NCBI RefSeq assembly: GCF_900232105.1
Contig: NZ_LT934425.1
Span: 2,130,001 to 2,162,000, forward strand
Length of the DNA: 32,000 nt
Direction: 5' to 3'
Origin: Candidatus Kuenenia stuttgartensis
GTDB taxonomy: Bacteria > Planctomycetota > Brocadiia > Brocadiales > Brocadiaceae
Shown: in pieces, positions 5,292-25,843 of the stretch
Layout of the letters: every line of letters begins with the position of its first letter
Position numbering within the stretch: position 1 is the stretch's first letter
Notes under the pieces: generated by a model
Databases searched by the model: none
What the model was told of the DNA's origin: nothing
The model's input: the letters and a program-made list of their open reading frames with translations, nothing else
Position numbers and translations under genes: made by a program

Positions 5292-5357
5292 TGGGTGCGC
5301 AGTTGTTTCATCCATCCTTATTTCGTAATAATAATGTTAAAATAACGGAGACACACG

Positions 5358-8375: not shown

Positions 8376-8555
8376 ATCCGTTCACTTTAGGAGTTTTTGA
8401 CCTGGCAAAAAATGAGTTAGCGGATAAGCCTAAGTGATTTTTGCTAAATGGGGAAAGCAAATTGCTAATTTTCAGGTACGAGTTATTCAAACTCTGCATC
8501 AAACAATATTTGGTCAAACCTTTTATTATTCAATATCCCTATACAAAAAGACTAC

Positions 8556-8564
8556 TGTTATAAT
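8556..8564 (+). promoter_or_regulatory. Candidate extended -10 promoter element upstream of the glycan operon
   Basis: tgttataat (TGnTATAAT) lies ~57 nt upstream of the 8621 start. No good -35 was seen and the sigma-factor consensus of this organism is unknown. Confidence 0.2.
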
Positions 8565-8620
8565 TGAATTATGAAGATTTTATCCCCCTTGATTAATACT
8601 CAAAAATAGAAATATAGTAG

Positions 8621-8957
8621 ATGAAAAACAATACCGTACTAATAACAGGTGCTGATGGTTTTATAGGTTCGCATCTAACGGAGGCTTTGGTAAAAGAAGG
8701 TGCAAACATAAAGGCATTGAGTTATTATAATTCGTTTAACAATTGGGGATGGCTTGAAAGTATAGATTGCCAAAAGGATATAGAGATTCTTACGGGAGAT
8801 GTAAGAGACCATAATTTCTGTAATCGTATTACGAAAAATGTCAATATAGTATTCCATTTAGCAGCATTAGTAGCAATACCCTATTCATACATCGCTCCAG
8901 ATAGCTATGTTGACACAAACATTAAAGGAACGCTTAATATTTGCAAGGCAGCGCTAG
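8621..8957 (+). pseudogene. NDP-sugar 4,6-dehydratase (extended SDR, LegB/PseB-class), 5' part, interrupted by IS1634-family element
   Basis: VLITGADGFIGSHL Rossmann motif and YYNSFNNWGWLE block. The ORF terminates 3 nt into the IS (8960..8962). Confidence 0.8.
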
Positions 8958-10961
8958 CGTGAGTTTATCACAAAATAAGGCATGAAGCAACGTAACATAA
9001 ATACAGTCAATGCGTTAAGCACAACATCAATTGTATACACTGAGTCCTTGAAGTTTCAGCCGATGTTTGTGGAAATCCATAATGCCTAACGCATTCATCA
9101 ACAGAGATTCCTTGTCGGACATTTCTTCCAATTTGTAGGTAGCCTTAACTCTCCCTCTGGCCTTTGTTTCTTCAAGCATAGCAGAAAGCCTTATATTATT
9201 AAGGGTGTCTAACAGGGTATCTAACGTTCCACTAAATTGTGCGTGCGCTTTTGCCTGATACCACACAATCGCCGCCATTAGGTATCCGAGGACGCAAATA
9301 AAAAAATGCACCCTGATTTTCTGATCCGTCCAGTGAAATTGCGGTTTTAAAGCAAGGTGATAGGGGTTCTTGAGATTTCTAAAGGCATGTTCAATTTTTG
9401 ATTGCCCATAGTAGGCTTTTATAATGTCCGCGGTATCCCAATCGTGATGGTCTGTCATAAGAATCCTGAACCCCAGTTCCCCTTCTATTTCTTCGAGCTT
9501 TTTCTGGTCGATTGAAAAATTCAATTGAAACTTGCCTTCAGATACCTCTTTTAACGACCAATCGATAACATCCTTCGCAAATTGACATTTCACTACACTT
9601 CTTATCGTATCCTCCAGACCCTCTTTGTCCCGCATCTTTCCCTTTGGATTACACAGATGCTGCTGTAAGAGCTTTAACTGATGTTCTGCCTTTTCCAGAG
9701 ACTGAGACATTCCCCTTAATTGCCCAACCTTTAATTTCTCGGAAATAAATACGACAACGGTTCTTTCCTGCCCCCAAATAACCCGTTTGTCATGGTACAC
9801 CTGTATCTTACTGCCGTCAACGTCATATTCCCTGAAATTACACATGGCATCCCCTACCAACTGCTTGTGATGATACGGTGTAAGCGCTCCAACGTAATGC
9901 AATGCCAATCTCTCTACAATAGCCATATTGTCCATGGAATTGTTTCCACGATCAAAAACAATAGTGTGCTTTTTGCTGTCGAAACCTAATCCGGTCATCC
10001 TGTCTTTTATCGTCTCAAGAACCGCGCTGAACACCTTTGCATCCGCCATGTTCCCCTGATAGGTATGGTGAAACAACGGTATCATGTCGTTACGTGTAAC
10101 GACCATCGCCAACCCGACCTGCCTGAGATCGTATCGCTTTTGTTTGTTTTTCCCCCGCCGGGCAATAGTGCATCGCAGATTAGTTGTGTCGATATACGTG
10201 AAAAAATTGGTTGTATCAAAAAACAGTGTGTCGCTTTGAAGGTTGTATGTTTTAAATGTCTTTTCAATTAATTCGCGCTCGATTTCTGCAATGGATTCTT
10301 CAGGAAGTGCATCCATCAAATCCCAGAAATGCTGACTGTCTATTTTACTCAAGCTGTGTCTGAGTAAGTATTCGGCAGTAGTCGTCTTTGCCCAATCCCA
10401 CCATCCTCTTTTGCTGGTAGGCACACACACTCTCCCCACGGCACCCAACAAGAGGGTACTTCCGGCGGTCAGATTATTTCGAACAGGTTTTTTAGCACAA
10501 TACTGCCGTGGCGACTTTATATATTTATTAATCACGGAAGGGACGTCCAGGGCATTGGCCACACTTAGCAATGCGGCTACCGCGCCATGTGAATAAGATT
10601 TGAGCCGTAATTTTTCGGTAAGACCTTGCAGTTGTTTTAATAAATCGTCTGCCTTGCCAAGATAGGCCAGGACGATGGGCCTGGGCTTGCCGTTAACGCG
10701 CCGCGATTCGACAATATACCAATATTTATAACCTCTGGAGTTTTTAGATTGAATGGTAGCCATGGCTATTAGTTGTTAGTGTATACGTAATAGATTAATA
10801 CTCCGTGTATAATAGTATATACAGGCATATAATGCAATATAAATATAGTATTATTCAGTGTATACATAATTTTTTAGACAAAAAAAGTCGCAACCCGATA
10901 CAAATCATTGGATTGCAACTTGATGTCTTTGTCTTACACCTTATTTCGTGATAAACTCACG
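8958..10961 (-). mobile_element. IS1634-family insertion sequence (~2.0 kb)
   Basis: Terminal inverted repeats are cGTGAGTTTATCACaAAATAAGG (8958..) and CCTTATTTcGTGATAAACTCACg (..10961). The target duplication is CTAG/GCTAG (8953..8957 and 10961..10965, boundary ambiguous by 1 nt). Subterminal tgtatacactga inverted repeats lie at 9032..9043 and 10855..10866. Confidence 0.85.
9027..10763 (-). CDS. IS1634-family (IS4-related DDE) transposase
   Basis: 578-aa ORF. The N-terminus SRGYKYWYIVESRRVNGKPRPIVLAYLG is the typical IS1634-family opening. It fills the element between the TIRs. Confidence 0.8.
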   Translation of the reverse strand: MATIQSKNSRGYKYWYIVESRRVNGKPRPIVLAYLGKADDLLKQLQGLTEKLRLKSYSHGAVAALLSVANALDVPSVINKYIKSPRQYCAKKPVRNNLTAGSTLLLGAVGRVCVPTSKRGWWDWAKTTTAEYLLRHSLSKIDSQHFWDLMDALPEESIAEIERELIEKTFKTYNLQSDTLFFDTTNFFTYIDTTNLRCTIARRGKNKQKRYDLRQVGLAMVVTRNDMIPLFHHTYQGNMADAKVFSAVLETIKDRMTGLGFDSKKHTIVFDRGNNSMDNMAIVERLALHYVGALTPYHHKQLVGDAMCNFREYDVDGSKIQVYHDKRVIWGQERTVVVFISEKLKVGQLRGMSQSLEKAEHQLKLLQQHLCNPKGKMRDKEGLEDTIRSVVKCQFAKDVIDWSLKEVSEGKFQLNFSIDQKKLEEIEGELGFRILMTDHHDWDTADIIKAYYGQSKIEHAFRNLKNPYHLALKPQFHWTDQKIRVHFFICVLGYLMAAIVWYQAKAHAQFSGTLDTLLDTLNNIRLSAMLEETKARGRVKATYKLEEMSDKESLLMNALGIMDFHKHRLKLQGLSVYN

Positions 10962-11615
10962 CTAGATAATGGTTGTAAGAGATTGATTCATACTTCAACA
11001 AGTGAGGTTTATGGTACGGCACAATACATTCCTATAGATGAAAAACATCCCTTACAACCGCAGTCACCTTATAGTGCAAGTAAAATTGGGGCGGATGCTA
11101 TTGCCATGAGTTTTTACCATTCTTTTAAATTACCAACAGTCATTGCAAGGCCTTTTAATACTTATGGGCCTCGACAATCGGCCAGAGCAGTAATACCAAC
11201 AATCATCTCTCAGATTGCCAGTGGTAAAAAAGAGATTAAGCTTGGGGATGTATCTCCAACAAGAGATATGAATTACGTAGAAGACACCTGTCACGGGTTA
11301 ATTACTCTCTCTAAATGTGATATGGCAGTTGGAGAAATATTTAACATTGGCTCTAATAATGAAACTTCTATATATGAGATTTTTAACCTGATAAAAGAGA
11401 TTATGGCAAGCGACGCACATTTAGTAACTGATAAGGAAAGGTTGAGACCGGAAACATCTGAAGTATTGAGGTTGTGTTGTGATAATTCCAAACTAAAGAA
11501 GCATACCGGATTTTCACCTCAGTATGCTCTTAAGGAAGGGCTTGAAAAGACTATTAACTGGTTTATCAATCCAAAAAACCTATCAAAATATAAAACGGAT
11601 ATCTACAATGTCTAA
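10962..11615 (+). pseudogene. NDP-sugar 4,6-dehydratase, 3' part
   Basis: LIHTSTSEVYG...SPYSASK (the YxxxK catalytic motif as YSASK)...RPFNTYGPRQ. Joining 8957 to 10966 gives an uninterrupted frame ...NICKAALDNGCKRLIHTSTSEVYG... Confidence 0.8.
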
Positions 11616-12330
11616 ACGAGCAATAATACTCGCAGGTGGCAAGGGGAAAAGATTATTGCCTTATACAATTGTTCTTCCAAAGCCATTAATGCCAATAGGA
11701 GAATACCCTATTCTTGAGGTTGTTGTACGACAGCTTGCATTTTACGGTTTCAGGCACATTACTATGGCCGTAAATCATCAAGCGGAAATTATTCAGGCAT
11801 TTTTCGGAAAAGGGAAAAAATGGAAAGTTAAAATCGATTATTCTTTTGAAGACAAACCTCTCAGCACAATTGCACCGTTAAAGTTAATAAGCAATTTGCC
11901 AGAGGACTTTCTGGTCATGAATGGAGACATACTAACGGACTTAAATTATTCAGATTTTTATCAGTTTCACATCAACAAAAAAAGTATCTTTTTAATTTCT
12001 TCTTATAAGCGAGAATTGAAAAGTGAGTTTGGAGTATTAGAATTTGATAAAAATGCAAAATTGAAGGAGTTTAAGGAAAAACCGGTTGTCCGTTACAACG
12101 TCAGCATGGGTATATATATGGCAAACAGAACCATACTTGAATACATTCCTAATAACAAACCTTACGGTTTTGATAATCTCATGCTCGATTTAATAAAGGC
12201 AGGAAAGCCTGCTACTGTAAAACCGTTCCATGGCTGCTGGCTTGACATTGGAAGGCCAGATGATTATATACAGGCTATTGATGAATTTGAAAAAAATGGA
12301 TTTTTGTTTCTTAAGGAATTAAAAAAATAA
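11608..12330 (+). CDS. Sugar-phosphate nucleotidyltransferase
   Basis: The ATG at 11608 overlaps the upstream stop (ATGTCTAA). MSKRAIILAGGKGKRLLPYT is the G-x-G-T/K-R-L signature of NTP-transferases. Confidence 0.8.
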   Translation: MSKRAIILAGGKGKRLLPYTIVLPKPLMPIGEYPILEVVVRQLAFYGFRHITMAVNHQAEIIQAFFGKGKKWKVKIDYSFEDKPLSTIAPLKLISNLPEDFLVMNGDILTDLNYSDFYQFHINKKSIFLISSYKRELKSEFGVLEFDKNAKLKEFKEKPVVRYNVSMGIYMANRTILEYIPNNKPYGFDNLMLDLIKAGKPATVKPFHGCWLDIGRPDDYIQAIDEFEKNGFLFLKELKK

Positions 12331-13475
12331 TGTGGAAAATACCTTTATCTGACATTAATTTCGACCAAAAAGAGGTAGAAGCAGTCCAAAATGTGATTTA
12401 TTCGGGTTGGCTTACAATGGGAGAGGTTACAAAAGATTTCGAAGCCCGCTTTGCCAGGTATATAGGTGTAGAACATGCATTTGCTGTTTCATCCTGTACC
12501 TCCGCGCTGCACCTTGCTGCTCTTGCTCTTGATATTGGAGAAGGCGATGAGGTAGTATGTCCTTCTCTAACATTCGTAGCTGCGCCGAACTCTATTATAT
12601 ACACCCGGGGAAAACCTGTTTTTGCAGATATAACTAGCGTAACAAACCTAAATATCTCACCTGAAGATATTGAAAAAAAAATTACAGCAAAAACAAAAGC
12701 CATTCAGATTATGCATTATGCCGGAATACCCTGCAATATGGAAAGTATCACCGACCTTGCCAGAAAGCGTGGTCTTCCGGTTATTGAAGATTGTGCTCAC
12801 TCTCCTGGATCGGAGTATAAAGGGAAAAGATGTGGCTCTATAGGAGACATAGGATGTTTTAGCTTCTTCTCCAACAAAAATATGACAACCGGAGAAGGGG
12901 GAATGATTACCACAAATGATGAAAATATTGCTAAAAAAATCAGAACATTACGCTCTCATGGTATGACTACCCTCACCCTTGATAGGCATAAAGGGCATGC
13001 CTTTAGTTATGACGTTACTGCCCTTGGATTTAACTATCGCCTCGATGAGATCCATTCTGCCCTTGGCATTGTGCAGCTTGAAAAACTACAAAAAAGTAAT
13101 GAAAGACGCCTGACATTAGCGACAAAATACCAACAAGCTTTATCTGAAATCCAAGGACTTTCAGTAATTTCCGGGAATGGGATTTCTGTATCATCTAATC
13201 ATATTCTCCCTGTTCTGTTGCCAGAAGAAATAGACCGTGCTAAATTTATGGAATATATGAAACAAAATGGCATTCAGACCAGCATCCACTACCCACCGGC
13301 ACACCTCTTTGATTTCTACCGTCGTATGTATGGATACAAAGAAGGAATGCTGCCACTCACGGAAGAAGTTTCTAAAAGAGAAGTTACATTGCCTCTATAT
13401 CCGTCTATGAATGAAGATAGTGTCAGCATTGTTTGTGATGCTGTTCGTGAATATTTTAAAAAGGAATTAATATAA
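12330..13475 (+). CDS. DegT/DnrJ/EryC1/StrS-family PLP-dependent sugar aminotransferase (PseC/LegC-class)
   Basis: FE..FA.Y.G..HA.AVSSCTSALHLA, SFFSNKNMTTGEGG (Lys-containing PLP site) and RSHG motifs. The start overlaps the upstream stop by 1 nt (TAATG). Confidence 0.85.
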   Translation: MWKIPLSDINFDQKEVEAVQNVIYSGWLTMGEVTKDFEARFARYIGVEHAFAVSSCTSALHLAALALDIGEGDEVVCPSLTFVAAPNSIIYTRGKPVFADITSVTNLNISPEDIEKKITAKTKAIQIMHYAGIPCNMESITDLARKRGLPVIEDCAHSPGSEYKGKRCGSIGDIGCFSFFSNKNMTTGEGGMITTNDENIAKKIRTLRSHGMTTLTLDRHKGHAFSYDVTALGFNYRLDEIHSALGIVQLEKLQKSNERRLTLATKYQQALSEIQGLSVISGNGISVSSNHILPVLLPEEIDRAKFMEYMKQNGIQTSIHYPPAHLFDFYRRMYGYKEGMLPLTEEVSKREVTLPLYPSMNEDSVSIVCDAVREYFKKELI

Positions 13476-14101
13476 TGAATGTGTTGGCTGTCGGCGCTCA
13501 TTTTGATGACATTGAACTTGGATGCAGCGGGACGTTGATAAAACATGTTAAAAATGGTGATAAGGTTATCATGCTAGTAGTTACAGATTCATCTTATAGC
13601 AATCCCAATGGTGAATTAATACGGAATTCTGAAACCGCTTATCAGGAAGGTCAGAAAGCAGCGAACATCATTGGCGCCGAACTGATTTGTTTAAATTATA
13701 AGACCTTCCTGGTTCCTTTCAGTGAAAAGTTAACAAAGGAAATTACTCGTATTATTGAGGATAAGAATATAGATATCATGTATTCCCCATGGATACACGA
13801 CCTCCACAGAGATCACCAGTATGTAGGCAAAAATGCACTTATGGCGGGACGACATGTAAAAAGATTTCTTATGTATCGGCCCAATTATTATGACACAGAC
13901 CAGATGTTCAGGGGAAATGTATATTCTGATATTTCTAATTTCATGGAAAACAAAAGTGAAGTTATTAAAGCACACAAGTCAGAACTTGAAAGGGTAAGGA
14001 ACAGCTGGCTAGACTTTTTCGAAAACCAGAACCAAAATGACGGACAAAAGATTGGGGTAGAGTGCGCGGAGTGCTTTGAAGTTGTTCGATATCTTTTGTA
14101 G
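13475..14101 (+). CDS. PIG-L/LmbE-family deacetylase
   Basis: VLAVGAHFDDIELGCSGTL and HRDHQ motifs. 1-nt overlap with the upstream gene. Confidence 0.75.
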   Translation: MNVLAVGAHFDDIELGCSGTLIKHVKNGDKVIMLVVTDSSYSNPNGELIRNSETAYQEGQKAANIIGAELICLNYKTFLVPFSEKLTKEITRIIEDKNIDIMYSPWIHDLHRDHQYVGKNALMAGRHVKRFLMYRPNYYDTDQMFRGNVYSDISNFMENKSEVIKAHKSELERVRNSWLDFFENQNQNDGQKIGVECAECFEVVRYLL

Positions 14102-14106
14102 GGAAT

Positions 14107-14775
14107 ATGGGTAAGATTGTTACAATTCATCAGCCTGATTTTTTACCATGGCGAGGCTTTTTTGATCGCTGGGGAAAAAGTGATTTGTATATTGTTCTTG
14201 ATGACGTGCAATTTCTCCGAAGAGGTTGGCACCACAGAGATAAAATCAAAACAAAAGATGGCGTAAAATGGTTGACTGTACCTGTTAAAAAAAAGGGCAA
14301 ATATGATCAACTTATACTGGAGGTAGAGATAGATTACAGCACAGATTGGCAAGCCAAGCACTTGAAAACTATTGAAGTTAACTATAAGAAAGCTCCGAAC
14401 TTTGAATATTATTTTGATAAATTGAAATCAATATACGTAAAAAAACACGATCTTCTAATAGATTTAAATATGGATTTATTGATATTTGTTGCGGAAGAAC
14501 TTGGGATAGATACTCCCGCTGTTTTTGCTTCTAGCTATAATGTGAATTCAAATTCAACTGAAAGGCTAATTGAATTGGTTAAGGCAGTAGGAGGTAATGA
14601 ATATTTAACAGGGACTGGTTCCAAGGGGTATCTCAATGAAAAACTTTTTCAAAGAAAAGGTATAAGGGTCGTCTGGCAAAATTACGAGGAGACTTTTTAT
14701 AAACAGTTGCATGAAGATTTTGTTCCACACCTTTCAGGGTTAGACTATCTAATGATGAAATGCAAAAATGACTGA
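14107..14775 (+). CDS. WbqC-family protein (function unknown, polysaccharide loci)
   Basis: IHQPDFLPWRGFFDRW...LDDVQF... resembles the WbqC N-terminal signature. Confidence 0.65.
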   Translation: MGKIVTIHQPDFLPWRGFFDRWGKSDLYIVLDDVQFLRRGWHHRDKIKTKDGVKWLTVPVKKKGKYDQLILEVEIDYSTDWQAKHLKTIEVNYKKAPNFEYYFDKLKSIYVKKHDLLIDLNMDLLIFVAEELGIDTPAVFASSYNVNSNSTERLIELVKAVGGNEYLTGTGSKGYLNEKLFQRKGIRVVWQNYEETFYKQLHEDFVPHLSGLDYLMMKCKND

Positions 14776-15436
14776 CATGAAATGCTATAGTTCAAATAGA
14801 TTTAAAGTTTCCATTTTGGTGGATGACCCCAGTTCATGGATAGTCCCATACGTAGAGAGTTTAAGTGTAAGAATTGGTGAGCAAAACGACGTATCTCTTT
14901 ATTTTAATGCATATGATATAGTGGAAGGTGATTTTTTATTTCTGCTTGGATGCACTTCTATTATACCCAAACAAGTTTTAAATAAGAATAAACATAATTT
15001 GGTTGTGCATGAAAGCGATCTTCCAGAAGGAAGAGGATGGTCTCCGGTAAGCTGGCAAGTATTGGAAGGGAAAAACAGGATACCTATCGTATTATTTGAA
15101 GCTGAAGAAAAACTAGATTCAGGCAGAATTTATTTAAAAGACTATATAGAACTTGATGGCACAGAACTTCTACCAGAAATCAAAAAAAAGCAGGGAGATA
15201 AAACTATTGATTTAGTGCTGACCTTCCTAAATCAATGGCCTGACCTGCAGCCTTCGGGACAGATAGGAATGCCCTCTTATTACGAAAAGAGAACCACAAA
15301 GCATGATGAACTCGATATAAGTAAAAGCATCATCCAAAACTTTAATCATCTTCGTATTATTGATAATGAAAAACATCCTGCATGGTTTCAACTAAATGGA
15401 CACAAATATATATTAAAAATATATAAAACAGACTAA
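14768..15436 (+). CDS. Formyltransferase-family protein (Fmt/PurN-like N-domain)
   Basis: NLVVHESDLPEGRGWSPVSWQVLEG matches the H-x-S-L-LP-x-x-RG formyltransferase catalytic loop. 8-nt overlap with the upstream gene. Confidence 0.7.
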   Translation: MTDMKCYSSNRFKVSILVDDPSSWIVPYVESLSVRIGEQNDVSLYFNAYDIVEGDFLFLLGCTSIIPKQVLNKNKHNLVVHESDLPEGRGWSPVSWQVLEGKNRIPIVLFEAEEKLDSGRIYLKDYIELDGTELLPEIKKKQGDKTIDLVLTFLNQWPDLQPSGQIGMPSYYEKRTTKHDELDISKSIIQNFNHLRIIDNEKHPAWFQLNGHKYILKIYKTD

Positions 15437-15451
15437 TATTCAAGGAGTTTA

Positions 15452-16486
15452 TTGGTGAAAACAATTTCTATCGGAAAATTCATAATAGGCTTAAATGAGC
15501 CTTGTCTCATACTCGCTGAACTCGGTGCTATGCAGGAAGACCTTAATGGGATGAAGAAACTAATTAAGGTTTCAAAAGAAGCCGGTGCCGATGCTGTAAA
15601 GATTCAAACTTACAGGGCAGAAACTATTGCCCATCCATCGGCAGAATTCGAATTTGAAGATGGCTCCAAGATGTTTCAAATGGAGTTCTTTAAAAAACTT
15701 GAAATTTCTCAAGACGACCATAAAGAGCTATTTGATTATGCAAGAGAGCTTGGGATTGCTATTTTTTCGACACCCAGTTACTATGATGATGTTGACTTTC
15801 TTGAAGAGTTGGGTGTGCCAGCTTACAAGACGGGTTCTGATGACTTAACTAATCGCCCTTTCCTTGAATATATCGCACGAAAGGGTAAGCCTATGATTGT
15901 ATCTACAGGTATGTCAACTCTGGCAGAGGTCGAAGAAGCGGTAGAAACAATTTTAAAGACTGGAAATGATCAGTTGGTTCTTCTTCACTGTACGACATCT
16001 TATCCGCCTGCTCCTGAATTTGCCAATCTTAATGTTATGAACACCCTCCGCTCTGCCTTTGACGTTCCCATTGGATATTCAGACCATGTTGCGGGTATTT
16101 TTTCTTCAATACTTGCTGCCAGTATGGGTGCCTCTGTTATTGAAAAGCATATAACCCTGGATCGAAAATCGAAAAGACCTGACTGTGAGGTATCGATAGA
16201 ACCATCAGAGCTAAAGGAGATGGTTGAACAAATTCGTTTAATACCTATTCTTCAGGGAAGCTCGATAAAGAAAATATATCCTTCTGAGAAGAAGTGGCGC
16301 AGGAATGGAAGAAAAAGCCTTGTAGCAAATCGTAATTTAAAATGTGGCGATGTTATTGGAAAAGAAGACCTGAAAATAATCAGGCCTGGAACGGGAATAC
16401 CTCCCAGATACATGGATTTCATCGTTGGCAAGACCTTAAAAAAGGACATTAGTGAAAATGAAATAATTCCTCATGATGCCTTTTAA
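15452..16486 (+). CDS. Nonulosonic acid synthase (NeuB/PseI/LegI/SpsE-like, with C-terminal SAF domain)
   Basis: CLILAELGAMQEDLNGMKKLI...GADAVKIQTY...YKTGSDDLTN...GYSDHV...IEKHITLDR plus a C-terminal SAF-like segment. aaggag lies upstream; the start may be the GTG at 15455 rather than the TTG at 15452. Confidence 0.85.
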   Translation: MVKTISIGKFIIGLNEPCLILAELGAMQEDLNGMKKLIKVSKEAGADAVKIQTYRAETIAHPSAEFEFEDGSKMFQMEFFKKLEISQDDHKELFDYARELGIAIFSTPSYYDDVDFLEELGVPAYKTGSDDLTNRPFLEYIARKGKPMIVSTGMSTLAEVEEAVETILKTGNDQLVLLHCTTSYPPAPEFANLNVMNTLRSAFDVPIGYSDHVAGIFSSILAASMGASVIEKHITLDRKSKRPDCEVSIEPSELKEMVEQIRLIPILQGSSIKKIYPSEKKWRRNGRKSLVANRNLKCGDVIGKEDLKIIRPGTGIPPRYMDFIVGKTLKKDISENEIIPHDAF

Positions 16487-17201
16487 GCCAGATTTCAATA
16501 CAGAAGTTGTAGTAATACTCCAAGCCCGCACAGGTTCTACGAGGCTACCAAATAAGGTTTTGAGATGTTTGGCGGGTAGACCAATGTTGTCGCATTGTAT
16601 TCAAAGGCTTAAGAGAATTGGTGATGGATATCACGTAATCGTAGCAACCTCTACCCTGAATAGAGATTATACTTTGGAGAAATTGGCAATTAAAGAAGGA
16701 GTATTATGTTACAGGGGGGGTGAGAAAGATGTTCTTGATCGTTACTACCATGCAGCGAAATCTGCAGGGGCTAAATTTGTGATCAGGGCAACTGGTGACA
16801 ATCCGTTGGTATGCCCTGAAGAGGCAAAAAGAGTTGTTGAATGCATAACAAGTCAAAAAGTGGATTATGTAACCGGGATAGAAGAAGTAGAAGGTTTAAA
16901 ACTACCGACAGGTGTCGGCGTAGAGGCGTTCACTTTTAAAGCGCTTGAACGATCATGGTTAGAAGGTAACAAAGAGCATCACCGTGAACATGTTAACGAA
17001 TATATTCTTGAGAATCCTGGAATTTTTAGCATAGTCAGGCTCTCCTGTATGCCCCAAAATAGTTGCCCCGAACTCAGTCTGACAATTGATACTAATGATG
17101 ATTTTGAATTTATTGAGGAGATGTTAAGCGGTTTTATTAAGCCTGCAACCGAGATAACTACATCCGAGATTATTAAATGGTGGAGAAAAAGAATAAACTG
17201 A
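16473..17201 (+). CDS. Cytidylyltransferase (SpsF/FlmC-type, putative CMP-nonulosonate synthetase)
   Basis: VVILQARTGSTRLPNKVL..L.GRPML is the SpsF-type CTP-transferase opening. 14-nt overlap with the synthase gene. Confidence 0.75.
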   Translation: MMPFKPDFNTEVVVILQARTGSTRLPNKVLRCLAGRPMLSHCIQRLKRIGDGYHVIVATSTLNRDYTLEKLAIKEGVLCYRGGEKDVLDRYYHAAKSAGAKFVIRATGDNPLVCPEEAKRVVECITSQKVDYVTGIEEVEGLKLPTGVGVEAFTFKALERSWLEGNKEHHREHVNEYILENPGIFSIVRLSCMPQNSCPELSLTIDTNDDFEFIEEMLSGFIKPATEITTSEIIKWWRKRIN

Positions 17202-18220
17202 TAGTTTTTCGCCTTGATGCTGGTCATGAAAGGGGAATGGGGCATCTGTACCGTATGATGACCCTGGCAGATGAATTTAGAAGAAAAGGGCATGACTGTC
17301 TGTTTGTATTAAAAAGAAATGATGTGGCGTCAAGAATTCTTGACAGCGTAAAGTTTAGATGTCTATCTTATCCAGTACATCTTACAGAAGAAGATATAGT
17401 AGAAAAATACTTCAAAGACGAGTTGGAACCTGATCTTTGGATATTTGATATTCTCTCCACTGACGAGACGTTGGTTGTACGGACTAAATCCATGGGGGTA
17501 CCTGTTGTATCATTTGATGATTTAAAGGGTGGTTTGCTCCATGCGGATCTTGTTGTGAATGCCATTGCAGGTTGCTGGGATGAGGAAAGTAAGGTCTCAG
17601 GGCGTATTCCACATGTATTAAGCGGGCCTCGATACGCAATTATTACGTCTGATATAATTAATCTGAAATACAAGAAAAAAATGCCTCAAGAAGACATTAG
17701 GATTGGGGTAACAATGGGAGGAAGTGATACACATGGCGCTACAGTAAAGATTGGACAAGTATTATCCCGTTTTGATGAAAAAGATATGTATGTGAATTTT
17801 TTTCTCGGACCACATTTCATGCATGACATTGAGATGGATGAGATGCTAGCAGCATTTTCACATCCATTTACCGTGAAAAAAGGGGTTTCGGATTTGTATG
17901 TAGAGTTGATTAATAATAATTTGGTCATATGCGGAGGCGGGCAAACTATGTTTGAGTTGTGCTCAATGGGAATGCCTGTTATGGCTCTGGCAAATGAGGT
18001 TCATGAAGAAAAGACCATTAGATATTTTGAGCGCAATGGAGCATGCATCGATATAGGTTCCGTTCATAAGGAACTTGATGATGAGAAGATGTGTAAGTTT
18101 ATTGATGAGATCAAGTACGATTTGGATAAACTGAACCGGTTGGCAGTGAATGCTGTCCAATTAGTTGACGGTAAGGGAACCAAGAGATGTTACAGTGCGT
18201 GTGCAGTCTTAATCAACTAA
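17177..18220 (+). CDS. PseG/SpsG-like nucleotide-sugar hydrolase (GT-B fold)
   Basis: LIVFRLDAGHERGMGHLYRMMTLADEF mirrors the PseG opening (R-x-DA-x-x-x-G-x-GH-x-x-R-x-x-x-LA). C-terminal GGGQTMFELCSMGMP is a GT-B-type motif. Confidence 0.7.
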   Translation: MVEKKNKLIVFRLDAGHERGMGHLYRMMTLADEFRRKGHDCLFVLKRNDVASRILDSVKFRCLSYPVHLTEEDIVEKYFKDELEPDLWIFDILSTDETLVVRTKSMGVPVVSFDDLKGGLLHADLVVNAIAGCWDEESKVSGRIPHVLSGPRYAIITSDIINLKYKKKMPQEDIRIGVTMGGSDTHGATVKIGQVLSRFDEKDMYVNFFLGPHFMHDIEMDEMLAAFSHPFTVKKGVSDLYVELINNNLVICGGGQTMFELCSMGMPVMALANEVHEEKTIRYFERNGACIDIGSVHKELDDEKMCKFIDEIKYDLDKLNRLAVNAVQLVDGKGTKRCYSACAVLIN

Positions 18221-18227
18221 GATATTT

Positions 18228-19280
18228 ATGATGCTTCAGAAAATAAAAGTAAATTCATTCCAGAAAAGGTTCGATAGCCGGTGGAGAAACTTTATTTTTA
18301 ACTGGAATCAAGGGAATATTATAAAATATTACTTGAACAGATACCAGTGGAACATGTATCCAAAGATGGGCAAGGTATCAGCCTTTCCTCTCCATGTCGA
18401 CATTGAGACGACGGCCAAATGCAATTTGCGTTGCGGCATGTGCCCCAGCCGGGAGCTTTCGAAAGAAAAGTATGGTGAATACGGTAATATGAAGATGGAA
18501 CTTTTCAGGAAACTGGTCGATGAATGCACAGAGAATAAGGTTTTTTCCATCCGCCTAAGCTGGAGAGGAGAGGTTTTAATCAATCACGATCTTGTCAAAT
18601 TTGTTCACTATGCAAAGGTTGTCAAGAAGATTCCAAATGTTTCTTTTTTGACCAATGGCAGTCTTTTAAAGGGAGAACTTGCCGAGAAGTTAATAGATTA
18701 TGGTGTCGATTATATTTCGGTATCTATTGACGGTATGGATGGTATGTACGAGAAGATACGGTATCCGTTAAAGTTCCGATCAATTTGTGAAAACCTGAAA
18801 AATTTCAAGGAATTGAAGAGGAAAAAAGGGAAGAAGAAACCTGTTATCCGTGTAACAACCCTGTGGCCTGCTATTGCTCAAGATCCTGAAGCCTTCTATA
18901 CGCGAATGAGCTCTATATGTGACAAGATTGTTTATAACCCGCTGAAAGACTACAGCATCACTGAACCTCAGAAAAAGGATTTTATTTGCCAGTTTCCGTG
19001 GGAGAGGCTGTTTGTAGGTTTTGATGGAAAAGTACAGCCGTGTAGCATAACGACAGACAGTTTTGTCATTGGTGATACAAATAAAAACAGTTTGAAGGAT
19101 ATTTGGCAAAGTACCGAAATGAACGATTTAAGGAATGTCCATTCAAAAATTAAGCGTATGGATGTAATCCCCTGCAATAAATGTAGCTATGGCATTGATT
19201 ATTCTAAATTATGGGAAGGTAGGGACTGGACCAAATGGAATCCTGAAGAACTAAATCAATTGAGTAAGGGAAACCAATAG
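18228..19280 (+). CDS. Radical SAM enzyme with SPASM-like C-terminal Cys motifs
   Basis: TTAKCNLRCGMCPS contains CxxxCxxC. Further Cys residues lie in CQFPW...VQPCS...IPCNKCSY. Confidence 0.75.
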   Translation: MMLQKIKVNSFQKRFDSRWRNFIFNWNQGNIIKYYLNRYQWNMYPKMGKVSAFPLHVDIETTAKCNLRCGMCPSRELSKEKYGEYGNMKMELFRKLVDECTENKVFSIRLSWRGEVLINHDLVKFVHYAKVVKKIPNVSFLTNGSLLKGELAEKLIDYGVDYISVSIDGMDGMYEKIRYPLKFRSICENLKNFKELKRKKGKKKPVIRVTTLWPAIAQDPEAFYTRMSSICDKIVYNPLKDYSITEPQKKDFICQFPWERLFVGFDGKVQPCSITTDSFVIGDTNKNSLKDIWQSTEMNDLRNVHSKIKRMDVIPCNKCSYGIDYSKLWEGRDWTKWNPEELNQLSKGNQ

Positions 19281-19282
19281 CC

Positions 19283-20167
19283 ATGGATATTGAAAAAATG
19301 AAGGCTGAAGTCAAGGCTTCCAAAATAGAAATCAATGAACTTCCCAGATATTCGCCATGGCCATCAAGATTATTTGGTCTTTCTGATTGGGATATAAAAC
19401 ATCGAAACAATGTTATAGTTTCGCATGAATATGGTGAAAAATGGGGTCGCTTGTTGTCTAAATATCAAGAAAGAAAATTCACTAACATAAACGAAGTACT
19501 TCACTACCTCTTTGATACACACTTTTCTGACAATATACTGTTTCATATATATGAGAATATCTATTATTCTGCAAATACGCCAGTTTTTTGGGATTTTTTC
19601 TACAATCAGATTATTCAGGCTATTACAAGGTATTTAACACCAAACGATACATTAGTTGAAATGGGTTGTGGTTGGGGAAGAAACCTTTTTACCTTATATC
19701 AACGTAAATTATTTAAAAATGCCATTGGTGGAGAATTTACACAGGAGGGGATAACACTTGGAAATCTCATTGCTAAAGAATTTAATGTGCCATTAGAGTT
19801 CTTTCACTTTGATTACTATAACCCCAAACAGGAATTTATGGAGAAGATCAACGGTACAGTAGTTTTTTCCCACAATAGCATAGAACAGATTACTCAAATG
19901 CCACAAAAAACTATTTTATCATTGATTGAAAACAGACCTAAGATTGTCTTTCATTTTGAACCTATATACGAATATCGAAACAAGGATACCCTTCTTCATT
20001 ATATGTGGAAACGGTATACTCAAGTAAACGAATATAATATTAATCTTTTGACTTTATTAAAGGATTTTGAAAAGAAAGGCCAAATAAGGATTGATCTAGA
20101 AGTTCCTCATGTCCTGGGACTCAATGCCTTTAATCCTGGAAGTTTTATAGTGTGGCAGCCTATTTAA
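19283..20167 (+). CDS. Class I SAM-dependent methyltransferase
   Basis: LVEMGCGWGRNL glycine-rich motif I. 2-nt gap from the upstream gene. Confidence 0.6.
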   Translation: MDIEKMKAEVKASKIEINELPRYSPWPSRLFGLSDWDIKHRNNVIVSHEYGEKWGRLLSKYQERKFTNINEVLHYLFDTHFSDNILFHIYENIYYSANTPVFWDFFYNQIIQAITRYLTPNDTLVEMGCGWGRNLFTLYQRKLFKNAIGGEFTQEGITLGNLIAKEFNVPLEFFHFDYYNPKQEFMEKINGTVVFSHNSIEQITQMPQKTILSLIENRPKIVFHFEPIYEYRNKDTLLHYMWKRYTQVNEYNINLLTLLKDFEKKGQIRIDLEVPHVLGLNAFNPGSFIVWQPI

Positions 20168-20168
20168 T

Positions 20169-21227
20169 ATGAAAAATCTTTTTATTATAGGCATATTCAG
20201 ATCTGGAACATCTTTGCTCTCAACAGCATTGAATACGCACAAAAATATAATTGTCGGCTGGCAACCTTACATGTTGTTTTTTAAGGCTTGCCGAAACAAG
20301 TATTTTAAAGAGATGTTGAGGGTTCCCTTTGATGAAAAAAACCCTATGGGTATTAATTACTTTAAGACAGTAAAAGATAGAGAACTTTTTCGTGAAGTTT
20401 TTCATTTAATCAGGTTCAATGCTACGGAACTCAGCACTATATTGTCTGAAATTAGGGACTACCTCCTCAGCGATAATGAGAAGATGAATAAAGATATGAA
20501 GCCACATGATCTGGCAAAAAATCTTGACGGTATAGAACCGGGATTCGCCGGGTATATATTAATGCAGTTAATGGAAAGATTATATCTCTCACAAATAATT
20601 ACACGTAATTGGGATATTAAATTTATAGGAATCAAAGAGGTTTTTTGTGAAGAATTTATTGAACCATTATTTAATTATTGCAACTTGAATTCAAAAGTTG
20701 TTCACATAATAAGAGATCCCAGAGCAGTGGTTGCATCCAGAAATTTTGGGAAATATATGGAAGCAACAGGCGCAAAGTACCCCATCTTTTTCATCATCAG
20801 GAGTTGGAAAAGAACAGTGGCAAACTATCTACTAAATAAATGTAATAGCAACTATTTAATGATAAGGTATGAAGACTTAGTTAGAAAGCCTGAAACAACA
20901 ATGAAAAAAGTTTGCGAGCTACTGGAGGTTCAATATTCAAATGACCTATTAAATTTAAGCAACTTTAAGGACAATAAAGGAAGAAGATGGGAATCGAACA
21001 CTTCATTTGATGGTTCTAAAACCATAACCACTTCGTCTGTGAACAAATGGGAAGATATTTTATCTGCCGAAGAAATTGAAGTTGTTGAGTATTATTGTCA
21101 ATCTGAGTTAAATACTTTAGGATACGAAAGAACAACAAAAAGCTTTGATCAAAAAAAAATTTTAAATTTCCAAGAGGATACATCAAACATTTGTGAATGG
21201 TTAAGGGAATATGATTTTAGTTTTTGA
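20169..21227 (+). CDS. PAPS-dependent sulfotransferase-family protein
   Basis: IIGIFRSGTSLL (5'-phosphosulfate-binding loop) and IIRDPRAVVAS (3'-phosphate-binding motif). Confidence 0.7.
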   Translation: MKNLFIIGIFRSGTSLLSTALNTHKNIIVGWQPYMLFFKACRNKYFKEMLRVPFDEKNPMGINYFKTVKDRELFREVFHLIRFNATELSTILSEIRDYLLSDNEKMNKDMKPHDLAKNLDGIEPGFAGYILMQLMERLYLSQIITRNWDIKFIGIKEVFCEEFIEPLFNYCNLNSKVVHIIRDPRAVVASRNFGKYMEATGAKYPIFFIIRSWKRTVANYLLNKCNSNYLMIRYEDLVRKPETTMKKVCELLEVQYSNDLLNLSNFKDNKGRRWESNTSFDGSKTITTSSVNKWEDILSAEEIEVVEYYCQSELNTLGYERTTKSFDQKKILNFQEDTSNICEWLREYDFSF

Positions 21228-21767: not shown

Positions 21768-22274
21768 ATGATATCAATGCAATATCCTGAACGACATAGC
21801 AATCATACTTTAGAGCAGAAATCGGAGACCTTTTTTATGCAACATTTACCGCAGGATTGGATTGCAACGACACCCAAAAAGGACTACGGACAAGATTTGA
21901 ATTTGGAAATATGTGAAGAAGGACAATATCGTAGCTTGGATTTGATAGTTCAATTAAAATCATCTGCGACAAGCAATATTCTAAATAATAGAGAAAGACA
22001 TCAACTAAAGGTTTCAACTTACAATTATTTATGGGACAATCTTAGGGTTGTTCTCATTGTAAAATATATTGAAGATGAAAATGAAGCATATTGGACACTT
22101 TTAAAAGATGTTGAACCGCCAGCAAATCCTGAACAAGAAAATTTCATGATTTATTTCCCACGGCAAAATAAACTCTCTGAAATTAACTGGAGCGACATAA
22201 TTAACTATGTAAGACAAGTTACAGACAAAAAATTAGCATCAACGAGAGCAAAGAATAAACAAAATCACAGCTAA
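21768..22274 (+). CDS. DUF4365-like restriction-endonuclease-fold protein
   Basis: E.KSETFFMQHLPQDWIATTPKKDYGQDLNLEI....LDLIVQLKSS fits the DUF4365 pattern (DyGiD...vQlK). Confidence 0.6.
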   Translation: MISMQYPERHSNHTLEQKSETFFMQHLPQDWIATTPKKDYGQDLNLEICEEGQYRSLDLIVQLKSSATSNILNNRERHQLKVSTYNYLWDNLRVVLIVKYIEDENEAYWTLLKDVEPPANPEQENFMIYFPRQNKLSEINWSDIINYVRQVTDKKLASTRAKNKQNHS

Positions 22275-22479: not shown

Positions 22480-22662
22480 ACCATATCTTAACGAGTTATT
22501 GTAAAATTGGTGAATTAATTGCTGAATAAAAAAGAAATAGAAAGATTAAGAGATTTTTATAAACTGCATGAAGGTGAATCTTGCTGGATTATTGGTAACG
22601 GTCCTTCCATCAATCAGACAAACCTTTTAACGTTAAAAGGTAGCGTTACTTTTGCGGTTAAT
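22316..22662 (+). repeat. Copy B of the diverged direct duplication (see 21064..21378)
   Basis: Begins ctgccgaagaaattgaagttgttgag and ends ...tttgcggttaat. It includes the functional 5' end of gene 22519..24384. Confidence 0.85.
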
Positions 22663-25387: not shown

Positions 25388-25403
25388 GAAAAGGAAATAT
25401 ACA

Positions 25404-25637: not shown

Positions 25638-25843
25638 TTGATGAACGAAACATTTGCCGGTTTGAGGAATATCCCGCCAGCATCCTTGCCGGCGGGAGGT
25701 CAGGCGCAGGGATGCTCCTGATACTATGCACACAACTATGCCGTGTTATGGCAATGTTTTGCCCCTTACATTAATGCGGCATATCGTTATTGTCGGAATT
25801 TTTCAAAAAGTTAAAGTGTTGCAATATTACAGAAAGATCATCA

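Follow-up and report, generated by a model that had tools for sequence, protein, structure and literature searches.

A probable CMP-nonulosonate biosynthesis and tailoring operon in Candidatus Kuenenia stuttgartiensis, with a conserved PIG-L/WbqC/radical-SAM module

How might a 5,7-diamino nonulosonate (NulO), a surface sugar resembling sialic acid, be built from an operon that encodes no acetyltransferase, and which of the additional enzymes encoded there act on that sugar? The locus lies in a stretch of 32,000 nucleotides of contig NZ_LT934425.1 of the anammox bacterium Ca. Kuenenia stuttgartiensis (positions 2,130,001 to 2,162,000), here called the window; its genes are on the plus strand unless stated. 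An earlier, sequence-only reading described eleven closely packed plus-strand genes of named families at 11608-21227, and the ORF coordinates and family matches agree. From 5' to 3', the junctions are 1-nt overlaps at 12330 and at 13475, a 5-nt gap, an 8-nt overlap, a 15-nt gap, overlaps of 14 and 25 nt, and gaps of 7, 2, and 1 nt. Promoter and terminator scans gave what is expected of shuffled sequence, and thus speak neither for nor against a single transcript. The operon is larger than that reading stated: it begins at 8621 with a LegB-type 4,6-dehydratase gene, and its 3' limit probably reaches a 621-aa candidate NulO transferase (22519-24384). The absence of a GNAT acetyltransferase from the operon holds for the whole 32-kb window, in which no non-nested ORF of at least about 80 aa has a GNAT or LbH domain, although an acetyltransferase could be encoded elsewhere in the genome.

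The family matches support a 5,7-diamino-tetradeoxy-NulO pathway whose front end is Leg-type: the intact LegB scores above the TIGR04180 cut-off, and the gene for a sugar-1-phosphate nucleotidyltransferase follows. This 240-aa protein (11608-12330; PF00483 NTP_transferase, 141 bits) presumably activates GlcNAc-1-P; its best NCBIfam matches, to guanylyltransferases and archaeal GlmU, all stay below cut-off. The DegT-family PLP aminotransferase (12330-13475; PF01041 DegT_DnrJ_EryC1, 410 bits), which presumably aminates C4 of the 4-keto-6-deoxy-hexose, carries the lysine motif SNKNMTTGEGG and scores 349 bits against PseC and 268 bits against LegC, each below cut-off. Further along are a NeuB-type NulO synthase with a SAF domain (15452-16486; PF03102, 288 bits, and PF08666; TIGR03569 at 326.6 and TIGR03586 at 296.4 bits, each below cut-off) and a CMP-NulO synthetase, or cytidylyltransferase (16473-17201; PF02348 CTP_transf_3, 107 bits). 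The nucleotide-sugar hydrolase (17177-18220) is PseG/SpsG-like, and not NeuC-like: it reaches 112 bits against TIGR03590, below the cut-off of 153.55, has no Pfam match, and finds a sole PDB relative in Campylobacter jejuni PseG (3hbm, E 2e-5). A Leg-type front end with a PseG-like hydrolase justifies the word "hybrid" that had been applied to the pathway.

A 2026 preprint describes CMP-NulOs of Ca. Kuenenia stuttgartiensis that bear one N-formyl group beside one free amine, with an increment of +14.01 Da, and ties them to a legB-legF-legC-deacetylase-formyltransferase-neuB-legF-legG cluster of NZ_LT934425.1; its account leaves out WbqC as well as the radical-SAM, methyltransferase, and sulfotransferase genes. 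A study of the Kuenenia S-layer glycan reports NulO fragments at 261, 275, and 289 and an unmasked amine. By our mass calculation these fragments correspond to the NulO backbone plus formyl plus 0, 1, or 2 CH2 units. The N-formylated, methylated product predicted by the sequence-only reading matches these published spectra, and its remark that it knew of no characterized bacterial pathway with such a combination of steps has been overtaken, as the preprint already assigns the core locus to the sugar. The same calculation makes acetyl isobaric with formyl plus CH2, which would allow the "+14 Da" species to be N-acetylated rather than methylated. For a sugar with one free amine and one N-formyl group, an acetyltransferase is not needed.

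We consider it probable that the locus is a CMP-NulO biosynthesis and tailoring operon and that it provides the NulO at the end of the S-layer O-glycan. This sugar would be a 5,7-diamino-3,5,7,9-tetradeoxy-nonulosonate in which one amine is free and the other N-formylated, with 0 to 2 extra CH2 units. In the model, which is drawn from the family assignments, GlcNAc-1-P would be activated by the nucleotidyltransferase, probably in the way known from GDP-dependent Leg synthesis, the LegB-type dehydratase would make the 4-keto-6-deoxy sugar, and the DegT enzyme would aminate C4. In either order, the formyltransferase-fold protein FT1 would formylate one amine (N5 or N7) with N10-formyl-THF as the donor, and the PIG-L enzyme would strip off the N-acetyl group that came with GlcNAc. 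One amine would thus stay free, and the route would require no acetyltransferase. The PseG-like hydrolase would then release the hexose, the NeuB-type synthase would add PEP, and the cytidylyltransferase would make the CMP-sugar. Methyl groups may come from a class I methyltransferase-fold protein, from the Methyltransf_24 domain of the 621-aa protein, or from both, and transfer of the sugar may fall to the Maf- or Cst-II-like domain of the latter.

How good are the candidates for the two acyl steps? The PIG-L/LmbE-family de-N-acetylase (13475-14101; PF02585, 70.7 bits), to which the free amine is presumably due, has the metal motifs AHFDD and HRDH and orthologues of 60-72% identity in related clusters. 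FT1 (14768-15436; PF00551, 39 bits), presumably an N10-formyl-THF-dependent sugar N-formyltransferase, aligns with profile positions 75-168 only of Formyl_trans_N; its family profile matches 1zgh, ArnA, and sugar N-formyltransferases, and H81, S83, P86, and D117 are invariant. It departs from canonical formyltransferases in having Asn at -4, not -2, from the catalytic His, and it is distant from PseJ, the one characterized NulO formyltransferase (33.9 bits against the FT1 family profile). PseJ-type N-formylation in place of PseH has been known since 2018. The FT1 family extends to at least 375 species, almost always adjoining NeuB, usually PIG-L, and rarely GNAT or LbH. We counted the genes up to 6 kb from FT1 in 53 full-length loci that span diverse phyla: NeuB is present in 51 of them, the gene for the cytidylyltransferase in 47, DegT in 45, PIG-L in 44, a second FT-fold gene in 30, GNAT in 5, and LbH in 4. 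Judged by this company, FT1 is dedicated to NulO synthesis, and the lack of GNAT, which had been taken as exceptional, is the ordinary state of such loci.

Do FT1 and PIG-L act on different nitrogens, or do they exchange the acyl group on one? In the latter case the N5-acetyl would be replaced with formyl and the C4-derived N7 amine never acylated, whereas otherwise FT1 would stand in for PseH/LegH at N7. We regard such an exchange as a serious possibility, if somewhat short of an even chance. The two genes occur together in 44/53 loci, and the second acylating partner varies (a further FT-fold gene, LbH, or GNAT in 30, 4, and 5 loci, respectively, or none, as in Kuenenia), as would be expected if FT1 and PIG-L were a fixed pair and N7 were left to another enzyme. 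However, PIG-L goes undetected in 9/53 loci, and locus L119 has a Hexapep acyltransferase in the FT1 slot while retaining PIG-L, WbqC, and the radical-SAM gene, which is equally consistent with FT1 being a freely exchangeable N-acyltransferase. The position of the formyl group is not assignable by mass spectrometry.

Is this copy of the operon functional? The dehydratase had been noted as in need of repair, and it is indeed split. Its 5' part (8621-8957, codons 1 to ~112; TIGR04180 171.5 bits, profile positions 1-109) and 3' part (10960-11615; 305.7 bits, positions 109-296) flank an IS1634-family element of ~2 kb on the minus strand (8954-10965; NF033559 transpos_IS1634, 284 bits) with an intact transposase gene (9027-10763, minus strand), 27-nt terminal inverted repeats (8954-8980 and 10939-10965, 96% complementary), and a 6-bp target-site duplication. 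A Kuenenia contig without the element, L001, overlaps both legB junctions by 6 nt: positions 6220-8957 of the window differ from its positions 1-2738 by one mismatch, and the 3' part of legB is 100% identical to it from 2733 onward; the remaining 10.1 kb likewise match the uninterrupted allele at 100%. The intact LegB protein of L001 scores 490.9 bits, above the cut-off of 475. Since the insertion breaks its first gene, the operon in this genome may have lost its function or suffer polar effects.

It is a lesser possibility, and in our view a doubtful one, that the operon here is a recently inactivated remnant, in which the element knocks out the dehydratase and, probably, transcription of the genes behind it, and that no NulO comes from this copy. 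The opposite orientation of the element, the freshness of its duplication, and the identity to the uninterrupted allele fit such an event, as do further IS-broken sugar genes nearby (fragments of DegT at 168-479, of a sulfotransferase at 24381-24722, and of GT2 at 24750-25637). However, every downstream gene is still an intact ORF, legB is uninterrupted in seven other Kuenenia contigs, cultures of Ca. Kuenenia stuttgartiensis make NulO, and either an outward IS promoter or a second, paralogous dehydratase could keep the pathway running. What this explanation addresses, moreover, is the condition of a single allele, not the coding content of the operon.

Turning back to the biosynthesis and tailoring operon that we favor, what do its distal genes modify? 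KSMBR1_1970 (19283-20167) has no Pfam or NCBIfam match and is assigned by fold only: its AF2 model (pLDDT 91.5) has class I SAM methyltransferases as all of its top Foldseek PDB matches (E about 1e-8). The family is rare (29 clusters among 5.8 billion proteins), has turned up in NulO clusters only, and usually adjoins the sulfotransferase and the transferase-like gene. The earlier reading had asked whether the tailoring genes travel with non-NulO glycans; for the methyltransferase they do not, as all neighborhoods fetched via this gene alone with enough flanking sequence are NulO clusters (L117-L119, L090, L096, L100, L102, L104, and L106). The PAPS-type sulfotransferase (20169-21227; PF00685 and PF13469, Sulfotransfer_1/3) has the motifs RSGTS and RDPR and PDB relatives in the CurM sulfotransferase and TPST. 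Sulfation of the NulO, also suggested earlier, lacks chemical support: neither the 2026 preprint nor the S-layer glycan study reports a sulfated glycan or CMP-sugar. The 621-aa protein, which has a GNGPS motif, combines an N-terminal MptE-like/DUF115 (Maf- or Cst-II-like) region (PF01973, 27.8 bits, below the cut-off of 34.6) with Methyltransf_24 (PF13578, 48 bits) and TPR domains. In L088, L089, L090, L092, L117, and L119, genes for homologues of it come after those for the methyltransferase and sulfotransferase; it is a candidate CMP-NulO transferase and second methyltransferase.

We think it unlikely that the methyltransferase, sulfotransferase, and radical-SAM enzyme act instead on other S-layer glycan residues, or on protein. 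Methylated HexNAc and dimethyl-deoxyhexose do occur in Kuenenia glycans and offer a methyltransferase other targets, no sulfated NulO is reported, and the methyltransferase and sulfotransferase genes sit at the distal end, adjoining transferase-like and GT2 genes. Yet the methyltransferase family keeps to NulO clusters despite their quite different glycosyltransferase content, the +14 Da species is already present at the CMP-NulO stage, and the radical-SAM gene lies amid NulO genes and is tied to WbqC and PIG-L.

The tailoring genes had been read as one set, and this grouping does not stand: the radical-SAM gene keeps company with WbqC and PIG-L rather than with the methyltransferase and sulfotransferase genes, whose companion is the transferase-like gene. 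The radical-SAM gene accompanies WbqC in 6/7 against 2/46 FT1 loci (p = 8e-6). Its product (18228-19280; PF04055 and PF13186, Radical_SAM and SPASM) is BtrN-like with one Cys4 auxiliary-cluster (twitch-type) domain; the family profile aligns with BtrN over both domains (E 3e-24; next match 47 bits), and 14 homologues all keep C65/C69/C72 and C254/C272/C316/C319. The WbqC-family protein (14107-14775; PF08889, 244 bits) has 1127 relatives, and its AF2 model (pLDDT 93.6) has no significant match among PDB folds, the best being the cytidylyltransferase TagD. PIG-L, WbqC, and the radical-SAM enzyme form a conserved module, within which the radical-SAM enzyme would most likely abstract an H atom at an amino-sugar carbinol carbon, leading to oxidation or epimerization, not methylation.

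The acetamidino synthase PtmG (Cj1324) of C. jejuni is, we assume, a member of the Pfam WbqC family. PtmG makes CMP-Leg5Am7Ac, and its gene lies between legC and neuB. It is nonetheless improbable that WbqC likewise turns an N-acyl group into an amidine, giving an N-formimidoyl or acetimidoyl NulO of which the "free amine" and "formyl" forms are partly breakdown products: the WbqC gene here occupies the same legC-neuB interval, the model weakly resembles HUP-class nucleotide-binding enzymes, and the 2026 preprint notes amidine-to-amide shifts during work-up, but intact CMP-sugars by high-resolution mass spectrometry are formyl (+27.995) and not formimidoyl (+27.011), the fold match is nonsignificant (E 0.03), and the membership of Cj1324 in the WbqC family is itself an assumption.

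The five accessory enzymes of the Kuenenia operon are conserved across phyla. One Thermodesulfobacteriota metagenome-assembled genome keeps the whole cassette at 35-68% identity: LegB 53-58%, nucleotidyltransferase 64%, DegT 48%, PIG-L 64%, WbqC 46%, FT1 60%, NeuB 66%, cytidylyltransferase 57%, PseG-like hydrolase 49%, radical-SAM enzyme 68%, methyltransferase 57%, sulfotransferase 47%, and transferase-like protein 35%. What is new relative to the preprint, then, is the spread of the FT1 family and its neighbors, the link of a BtrN-like radical-SAM enzyme to WbqC and PIG-L, the methyltransferase family, and this cassette in the Thermodesulfobacteriota.

The core of this pathway is already tied to its product in Candidatus Kuenenia stuttgartiensis. 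Nonulosonic acids (NulOs) with an unmasked amine, giving fragments 261, 275 and 289, have been described in the S-layer O-glycan (10.1101/2020.12.03.409086), and a SugarBase preprint reports CMP-NulOs with one free amine, one N-formyl group and an additional 14.01 Da, together with a cluster on NZ_LT934425.1 that comprises legB, legF, legC, deacetylase, formyltransferase, neuB, legF and legG (10.64898/2026.04.20.719630). That cluster is from the same organism, is the same locus as judged by gene order, and carries the same product assignment as ours; the formyltransferase-fold protein encoded at 14768-15436 (here FT1) shows 100% identity to a database protein that bears the name Ca. Kuenenia stuttgartiensis, and the methyltransferase gene of the operon is KSMBR1_1970. 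By mass arithmetic, 261.108, 275.124 and 289.139 fit a diamino-tetradeoxy backbone that bears a formyl group and 0, 1 or 2 additional CH2 units. The suggestion of a formylated and methylated product, made in the sequence-only reading, thus agrees with the published Kuenenia data, with the caveat on its methyl part that acetyl (C2H2O) and formyl plus CH2 are identical in composition and hence isobaric. The “275” NulO could, for instance, be an N-acetyl/free-amine intermediate and not a methylated N-formyl species.

In the proposed mechanism, one nitrogen would be formylated, the acetyl group that stems from GlcNAc would be taken off, and the second nitrogen would stay or become unsubstituted. 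This chemistry explains the missing acetyltransferase. NulOs with a free amine are net-neutral rather than acidic, and they have been proposed to balance the charge of the very acidic S-layer of an anammox bacterium that has to import nitrite (10.1101/2020.12.03.409086). The SugarBase preprint does not discuss the WbqC, radical-SAM, methyltransferase and sulfotransferase genes or the transferase-like gene downstream, and it reports neither the distribution of the system beyond Kuenenia nor the disruption of the locus by an insertion sequence (IS).

An ORF listing bears out the eleven packed plus-strand genes claimed at 11608-21227, with overlaps of 1-25 nt and gaps of 1-15 nt. Of the eleven families that had been assigned from the sequence alone, ten are recovered by Pfam and NCBIfam: NTP_transferase, DegT, PIG-L, WbqC, a partial Formyl_trans_N (FT1), NeuB+SAF, a PseG-like protein, CTP_transf_3, Radical_SAM+SPASM and Sulfotransfer_1/3. 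For the remaining one, the SAM methyltransferase at 19283-20167, neither Pfam nor NCBIfam has a matching model, and the assignment is upheld on the fold, by a confident AlphaFold model and Foldseek. The reported lack of a GNAT also holds: none of the ORFs scanned across the 32-kb window has a GNAT or LbH domain. Scans of the window for tRNA genes and Rfam families gave no match, and promoter and terminator scans returned counts equal to those of shuffled controls and so carry no information on the operon claim.

The operon is larger than first noted, and its first gene is broken. Two plus-strand ORFs, 8621-8962 and 10908-11615, match positions 1-109 and 109-296 of the LegB profile TIGR04180 (171.5 and 305.7 bits) and are separated by an IS1634-family element at 8954-10965, which has its transposase gene at 9027-10763 on the minus strand and 27-nt inverted repeats at 8954-8980 and 10939-10965. 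A public Kuenenia contig with this locus, L001, lacks the element: it matches the window up to 8957 and resumes at 10960, the two matches sharing 6 nt that represent the target-site duplication, and it is 100% identical to the window for 10,134 nt past the junction. Its intact allele (L001:2402-3388) scores 490.9 bits against the TIGR04180 cut-off of 475 and therefore qualifies as a LegB equivalog. Given that legB is intact in L001 and in six further Kuenenia contigs (seven in total) and that the flanks of the element are 99.96-100% identical, the split allele is a strain- or population-level knock-out. The insertion in the legB gene of the window's own genome is recent.

Is this a legionaminic (Leg) pathway, a pseudaminic (Pse) pathway, or a mixture of the two? 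The front end is of Leg type, with a LegB equivalog followed by a sugar-1-phosphate nucleotidyltransferase. By HMM score, the aminotransferase, synthase and cytidylyltransferase are each under every equivalog cut-off. The aminotransferase reaches 267.6 bits with the LegC model TIGR04181 (cut-off 420) and a higher 349.4 bits with PseC (cut-off 423.5), which supports general DegT membership only, and the other Pse equivalogs are likewise below cut-off: PseB at 71.8 (407.75), PseI at 296.4 (340.25) and PseF at 23 (205.7). No Epimerase_2 match, the mark of a LegG-type (NeuC-type) hydrolysing 2-epimerase, was found in the window; there is instead the PseG-like protein, with 112.4 bits to TIGR03590 (cut-off 153.55) and a sole PDB relative, Campylobacter jejuni PseG (3hbm, E = 2e-5). 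In total, the sub-cut-off aminotransferase, synthase and cytidylyltransferase, and a hydrolase that is PseG-like and not NeuC-like, indicate that the pathway is neither canonical Leg nor canonical Pse. The two preprints describe the sugar at the level of its composition.

The GDP-dependent Leg pathway of C. jejuni (PtmE, LegB, LegC, LegH, LegG, LegI and LegF, with PtmG and PtmH for tailoring) shares with Kuenenia a LegB, a dedicated sugar-1-phosphate nucleotidyltransferase, a DegT aminotransferase, a NeuB-type synthase and a cytidylyltransferase, and in both the tailoring genes are lodged between aminotransferase and synthase. However, the Kuenenia operon has no LegH acetyltransferase, a PseG-like hydrolase replaces LegG, the aminotransferase is by score closer to PseC than to LegC, and PIG-L, FT1, radical-SAM, methyltransferase and sulfotransferase genes are added. 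The nearest characterised mixed case is the Sps route of Bacillus subtilis (SpsM, C, D, G, E and F), in which the PseG-like SpsG serves Leg synthesis, and which has, besides a PseG-like protein, a DegT aminotransferase, a NeuB-type synthase and an SpsF-like cytidylyltransferase in common with Kuenenia. Unlike Kuenenia, the Sps route uses UDP-sugars and the acetyltransferase SpsD, and it is without deacetylase, formyltransferase, WbqC, radical-SAM enzyme and sulfotransferase.

FT1, the putative N-formyltransferase, matches PF00551 with 39 bits (cut-off 26.1) over profile positions 75-168 only. Among 20 homologues, His81, Ser83, Pro86, Gly88/90 and Asp117 do not vary, with Asn at -4 (N77) and Val at -2; the triad of sugar N-formyltransferases is Asn-x-His...Asp, with the loop HxSxLPxxRG. 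Matches to the FT1 profile include ArnA, VioF and WlaRD. We rule out that FT1 is PseJ, which scores just 33.9 bits (E = 2e-7), well under 1zgh (75.7 bits) or ArnA. N-formylation in place of the acetyltransferase PseH has precedent in the PseJ route to Pse5Ac7Fo (Anoxybacillus kamchatkensis; PDB 6ci2/6ci4), where a formyltransferase-fold enzyme likewise replaces the N-acetyltransferase. In contrast to that route, the predicted formyltransferase FT1 belongs to another subfamily and is paired with a deacetylase, the Kuenenia product retains a free amine, and the front end is of LegB rather than PseB type.

The protein database contains 624 FT1 relatives, and the family is encoded in at least 375 species-representative genomes (those matching the search patterns), its carriers ranging over Desulfobacterota, Omnitrophota, Bacteroidota, Clostridia, Acidobacteriota, Cyanobacteria, Akkermansia, CPR bacteria and Micrarchaeota. 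For the 53 loci retrieved with 6 kb or more of flanking sequence on each side, we counted the genes within 6 kb of FT1 with iterative HMMs. NeuB was found at 51 of the 53, a cytidylyltransferase at 47, DegT at 45, PIG-L at 44 (it is also present in loci missed by tblastn, as a Pfam check of unlabelled ORFs revealed), a PseG-like gene at 37, a second formyltransferase-fold gene at 30, a radical-SAM gene at 8, WbqC at 7 and a sulfotransferase at 3; GNAT was found at no fewer than 5 and LbH at no fewer than 4, both counts being lower bounds, since the iterative HMMs used to detect these two families (80 loci) were self-built, from one or two seeds each. These neighbours make FT1 and PIG-L a widespread pair dedicated to NulO clusters. 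What had been taken for an oddity of the Kuenenia operon, its lack of a GNAT, is instead the rule in FT1-type clusters (GNAT at 5 or more of 53 loci), which constitute a large, unrecognised class of NulO clusters, typically without GNAT.

The second formyltransferase-fold gene of related clusters is not PseJ either, but is of the 1zgh type: 1zgh scores 248 bits against the protein encoded at L014:10725-11426. Genes of this kind also occur in loci L013, L050, L079 and L085. The 1zgh structure, from Clostridium thermocellum, was deposited as “Methionyl-tRNA formyltransferase”; on the strength of the 248-bit match to a NulO-cluster protein, it is probably a sugar-modifying enzyme and not Fmt.

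The radical-SAM, methyltransferase and sulfotransferase genes had been read as a single tailoring unit, but by co-occurrence the accessory genes fall into two modules. The first joins PIG-L, WbqC and the radical-SAM gene. Six of the seven loci with WbqC have a radical-SAM gene, versus 2 of the 46 others (p = 8e-6); in Syntrophales, Omnitrophota and Desulfovibrionaceae the two recur together with a PIG-L of high identity (60-72%), and the whole module is found in L117 and L119, loci reached independently via the methyltransferase. In L119, a Hexapep acyltransferase and carbamoyltransferases take the place of FT1, while PIG-L, WbqC and the radical-SAM gene are kept. A second subtype of cluster has the order PIG-L, WbqC, FT1, radical-SAM (424 aa), FT2, radical-SAM (~349 aa), Methyltransf_11, NeuB (L083, L087, L005, L006, L008, L011 and L041, mostly from Desulfobacterota and Omnitrophota); a single NulO cluster of this subtype can hold as many as three or four radical-SAM genes.

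The radical-SAM family has an invariant CX3CX2C motif (C65/69/72) and exactly four further invariant cysteines (C254/272/316/319). Its profile finds BtrN, the 2-deoxy-scyllo-inosamine dehydrogenase of butirosin biosynthesis (PDB 4m7s/4m7t), with E = 3e-24, aligning over both the core and the auxiliary-cluster domain with the CX3CX2C core and all four C-terminal cysteines matched one-to-one; the next PDB match has only 47 bits. The enzyme is therefore BtrN-like, and its C-terminal twitch domain is predicted to hold one Cys4 auxiliary cluster. The butirosin pathway also includes a PIG-L-family deacetylase and DegT-family aminotransferases. The substrate of BtrN is an amino-carbohydrate (an amino-cyclitol), whereas that of the Kuenenia enzyme, which is ~80 residues longer at its N terminus, must differ. 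Because BtrN dehydrogenates an amino-cyclitol by radical-SAM chemistry, we infer hydrogen abstraction at an amino-sugar carbinol carbon, which would bring about oxidation or epimerisation. Neither a keto nor an extra-amino NulO has been observed; unlike with BtrN, the result may therefore be epimerisation or something else. It is unlikely that the enzyme is a methylase, as it is BtrN-like and without a cobalamin or HemN-like domain.

WbqC matches PF08889 over its full length (244.2 bits; residues 9-220 against profile positions 1-213 of 218). It has no sequence relative in the PDB, and a Foldseek search of the PDB with its predicted model (pLDDT 93.6) gave no significant match, the best being HUP-class cytidylyltransferases (E 0.03-0.2). 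PtmG (Cj1324) of C. jejuni is presumably a WbqC-family protein. The literature gives its function and not its family, naming it as the Leg acetamidino synthase (sources including 10.64898/2026.04.20.719630).

The second module joins the methyltransferase, the sulfotransferase (20169-21227) and the transferase-like gene. The methyltransferase family is rare, with just 29 clusters among 5.8 billion proteins, and a PDB sequence search gave only marginal matches, to C-methyltransferases. An AlphaFold (AF2) model built from 29 homologues reached a pLDDT of 91.5, its top 50 Foldseek matches in the PDB were all class I SAM methyltransferases (probability 1.00), and the motif LVEMGCGWG has E126, G128 and G130 invariant; going by this modelled fold, the product of 19283-20167 is predicted to be a class I SAM methyltransferase. 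Among loci fetched by the methyltransferase alone, L089 and L092 have the order methyltransferase-sulfotransferase-transferase-like gene, L110 has methyltransferase-sulfotransferase up to the contig end, L090 has NeuB-cytidylyltransferase-methyltransferase...transferase-like gene, and L091 has DegT-PIG-L-methyltransferase. All three Pfam-annotated methyltransferase neighbourhoods are NulO clusters, and most of the longer contigs with distant homologues also contain NulO genes. Do the tailoring genes travel with glycans other than NulOs? The methyltransferase does not in the neighbourhoods examined, nor does the radical-SAM gene in the available sample; for the sulfotransferase the test was an indirect one.

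The sulfotransferase (PF00685 60.8 bits, PF13469 60.1 bits; PDB relatives CurM sulfotransferase and TPST) retains, as read by eye, the 5'-PSB- and 3'-PB-class motifs FRSGTS and RDPRAVVAS, and domain and motifs together class it as a putative PAPS-dependent enzyme. Farther downstream, past a DUF4365 gene, lies the transferase-like gene (22519-24384, plus strand), which encodes a 621-aa protein with a weak MptE-like/DUF115 domain, Methyltransf_24 and TPR repeats. Its N-terminal domain scores 27.8 bits with PF01973 (MptE-like), under the cut-off of 34.6, and was rejected as a solved Maf, there being no PDB sequence match. By eye it has an IIGNGPS motif and an N terminus reading CWIIGNGPSINQ...YYVATNP, which presumably resembles the GNGPSL CMP-sugar motif of Cst-II (GT42) and Maf proteins. 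Homologues of the gene follow the methyltransferase in several unrelated NulO clusters.

Directly upstream of a YhgA-like (Transposase_31) gene at 597-1586, a 103-aa ORF (168-479) matches part of a DegT aminotransferase (positions 81-126 of the Pfam profile) and looks like a further sugar gene that a mobile element has broken. Five plus-strand ORFs upstream of legB (4575-8375; 238, 204, 447, ~70 and 179 aa), with no Pfam match except a weak Mrr_cat, are conserved in all Kuenenia contigs and look defence-like and not glycan-related. The DUF4365 (restriction-endonuclease-like) gene between sulfotransferase and transferase-like gene (21768-22274) is present in Ca. Kuenenia hertensis and absent from the syntenic Thermodesulfobacteriota cassette, and is thus probably an unrelated insertion. 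A 113-aa ORF (24381-24722), with a 4-nt overlap onto the stop codon of the 621-aa gene, matches the last third of a sulfotransferase (positions 155-248 of Sulfotransfer_1) and is present in every Kuenenia contig examined; its short length may reflect truncation of a paralogue or a mis-called start. GT2 fragments stand at 24750-24998 and 25260-25637 and a full GT2 gene at 28366-29760, with a YhgA-like transposase (25790-26872) and a TumE-type toxin pair (27431-28089) between them; the fragment at 25260-25637 repeats residues ~117-165 of the full GT2 almost verbatim, which, with the intervening genes, suggests a rearranged or duplicated glycosyltransferase gene.

The cassette recurs outside Kuenenia. 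A Thermodesulfobacteriota MAG (L088) has the whole gene set in nearly the same order (35-68% identity), adjoining a Wzm/Wzt transporter, and an Omnitrophota MAG has PIG-L-WbqC-FT1-NeuB-PseG-like-radical-SAM (58%)-sulfotransferase (45%). Common to Planctomycetota, Thermodesulfobacteriota and Omnitrophota is a cassette of LegB-type front end, PIG-L, WbqC, FT1, BtrN-like radical-SAM enzyme, uncatalogued methyltransferase, sulfotransferase and candidate Cst-II/Maf-like transferase. We speculate, in a reading that we consider rather improbable, that it may encode an undescribed class of NulO that is zwitterionic (free amine), N-formylated, modified at C-H by the radical-SAM enzyme (anaerobic epimerisation or oxidation) and O-sulfated, with WbqC as a new-fold enzyme acting on the unmasked amine. 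A radical-SAM enzyme with a nonulosonate as its substrate would be a first, as would a bacterial NulO that is sulfated.

Four families, FT1, WbqC, the BtrN-like radical-SAM enzyme and the Pfam-less methyltransferase, now have tight, testable genomic associations. The logic of a deacetylase and a formyltransferase without an acetyltransferase extends to at least 375 species in many phyla, including CPR bacteria, DPANN archaea and cyanobacteria, and, given this wide spread, N-formyl or de-N-acetylated sugars of Pse/Leg type are probably far commoner than the few characterised cases suggest.
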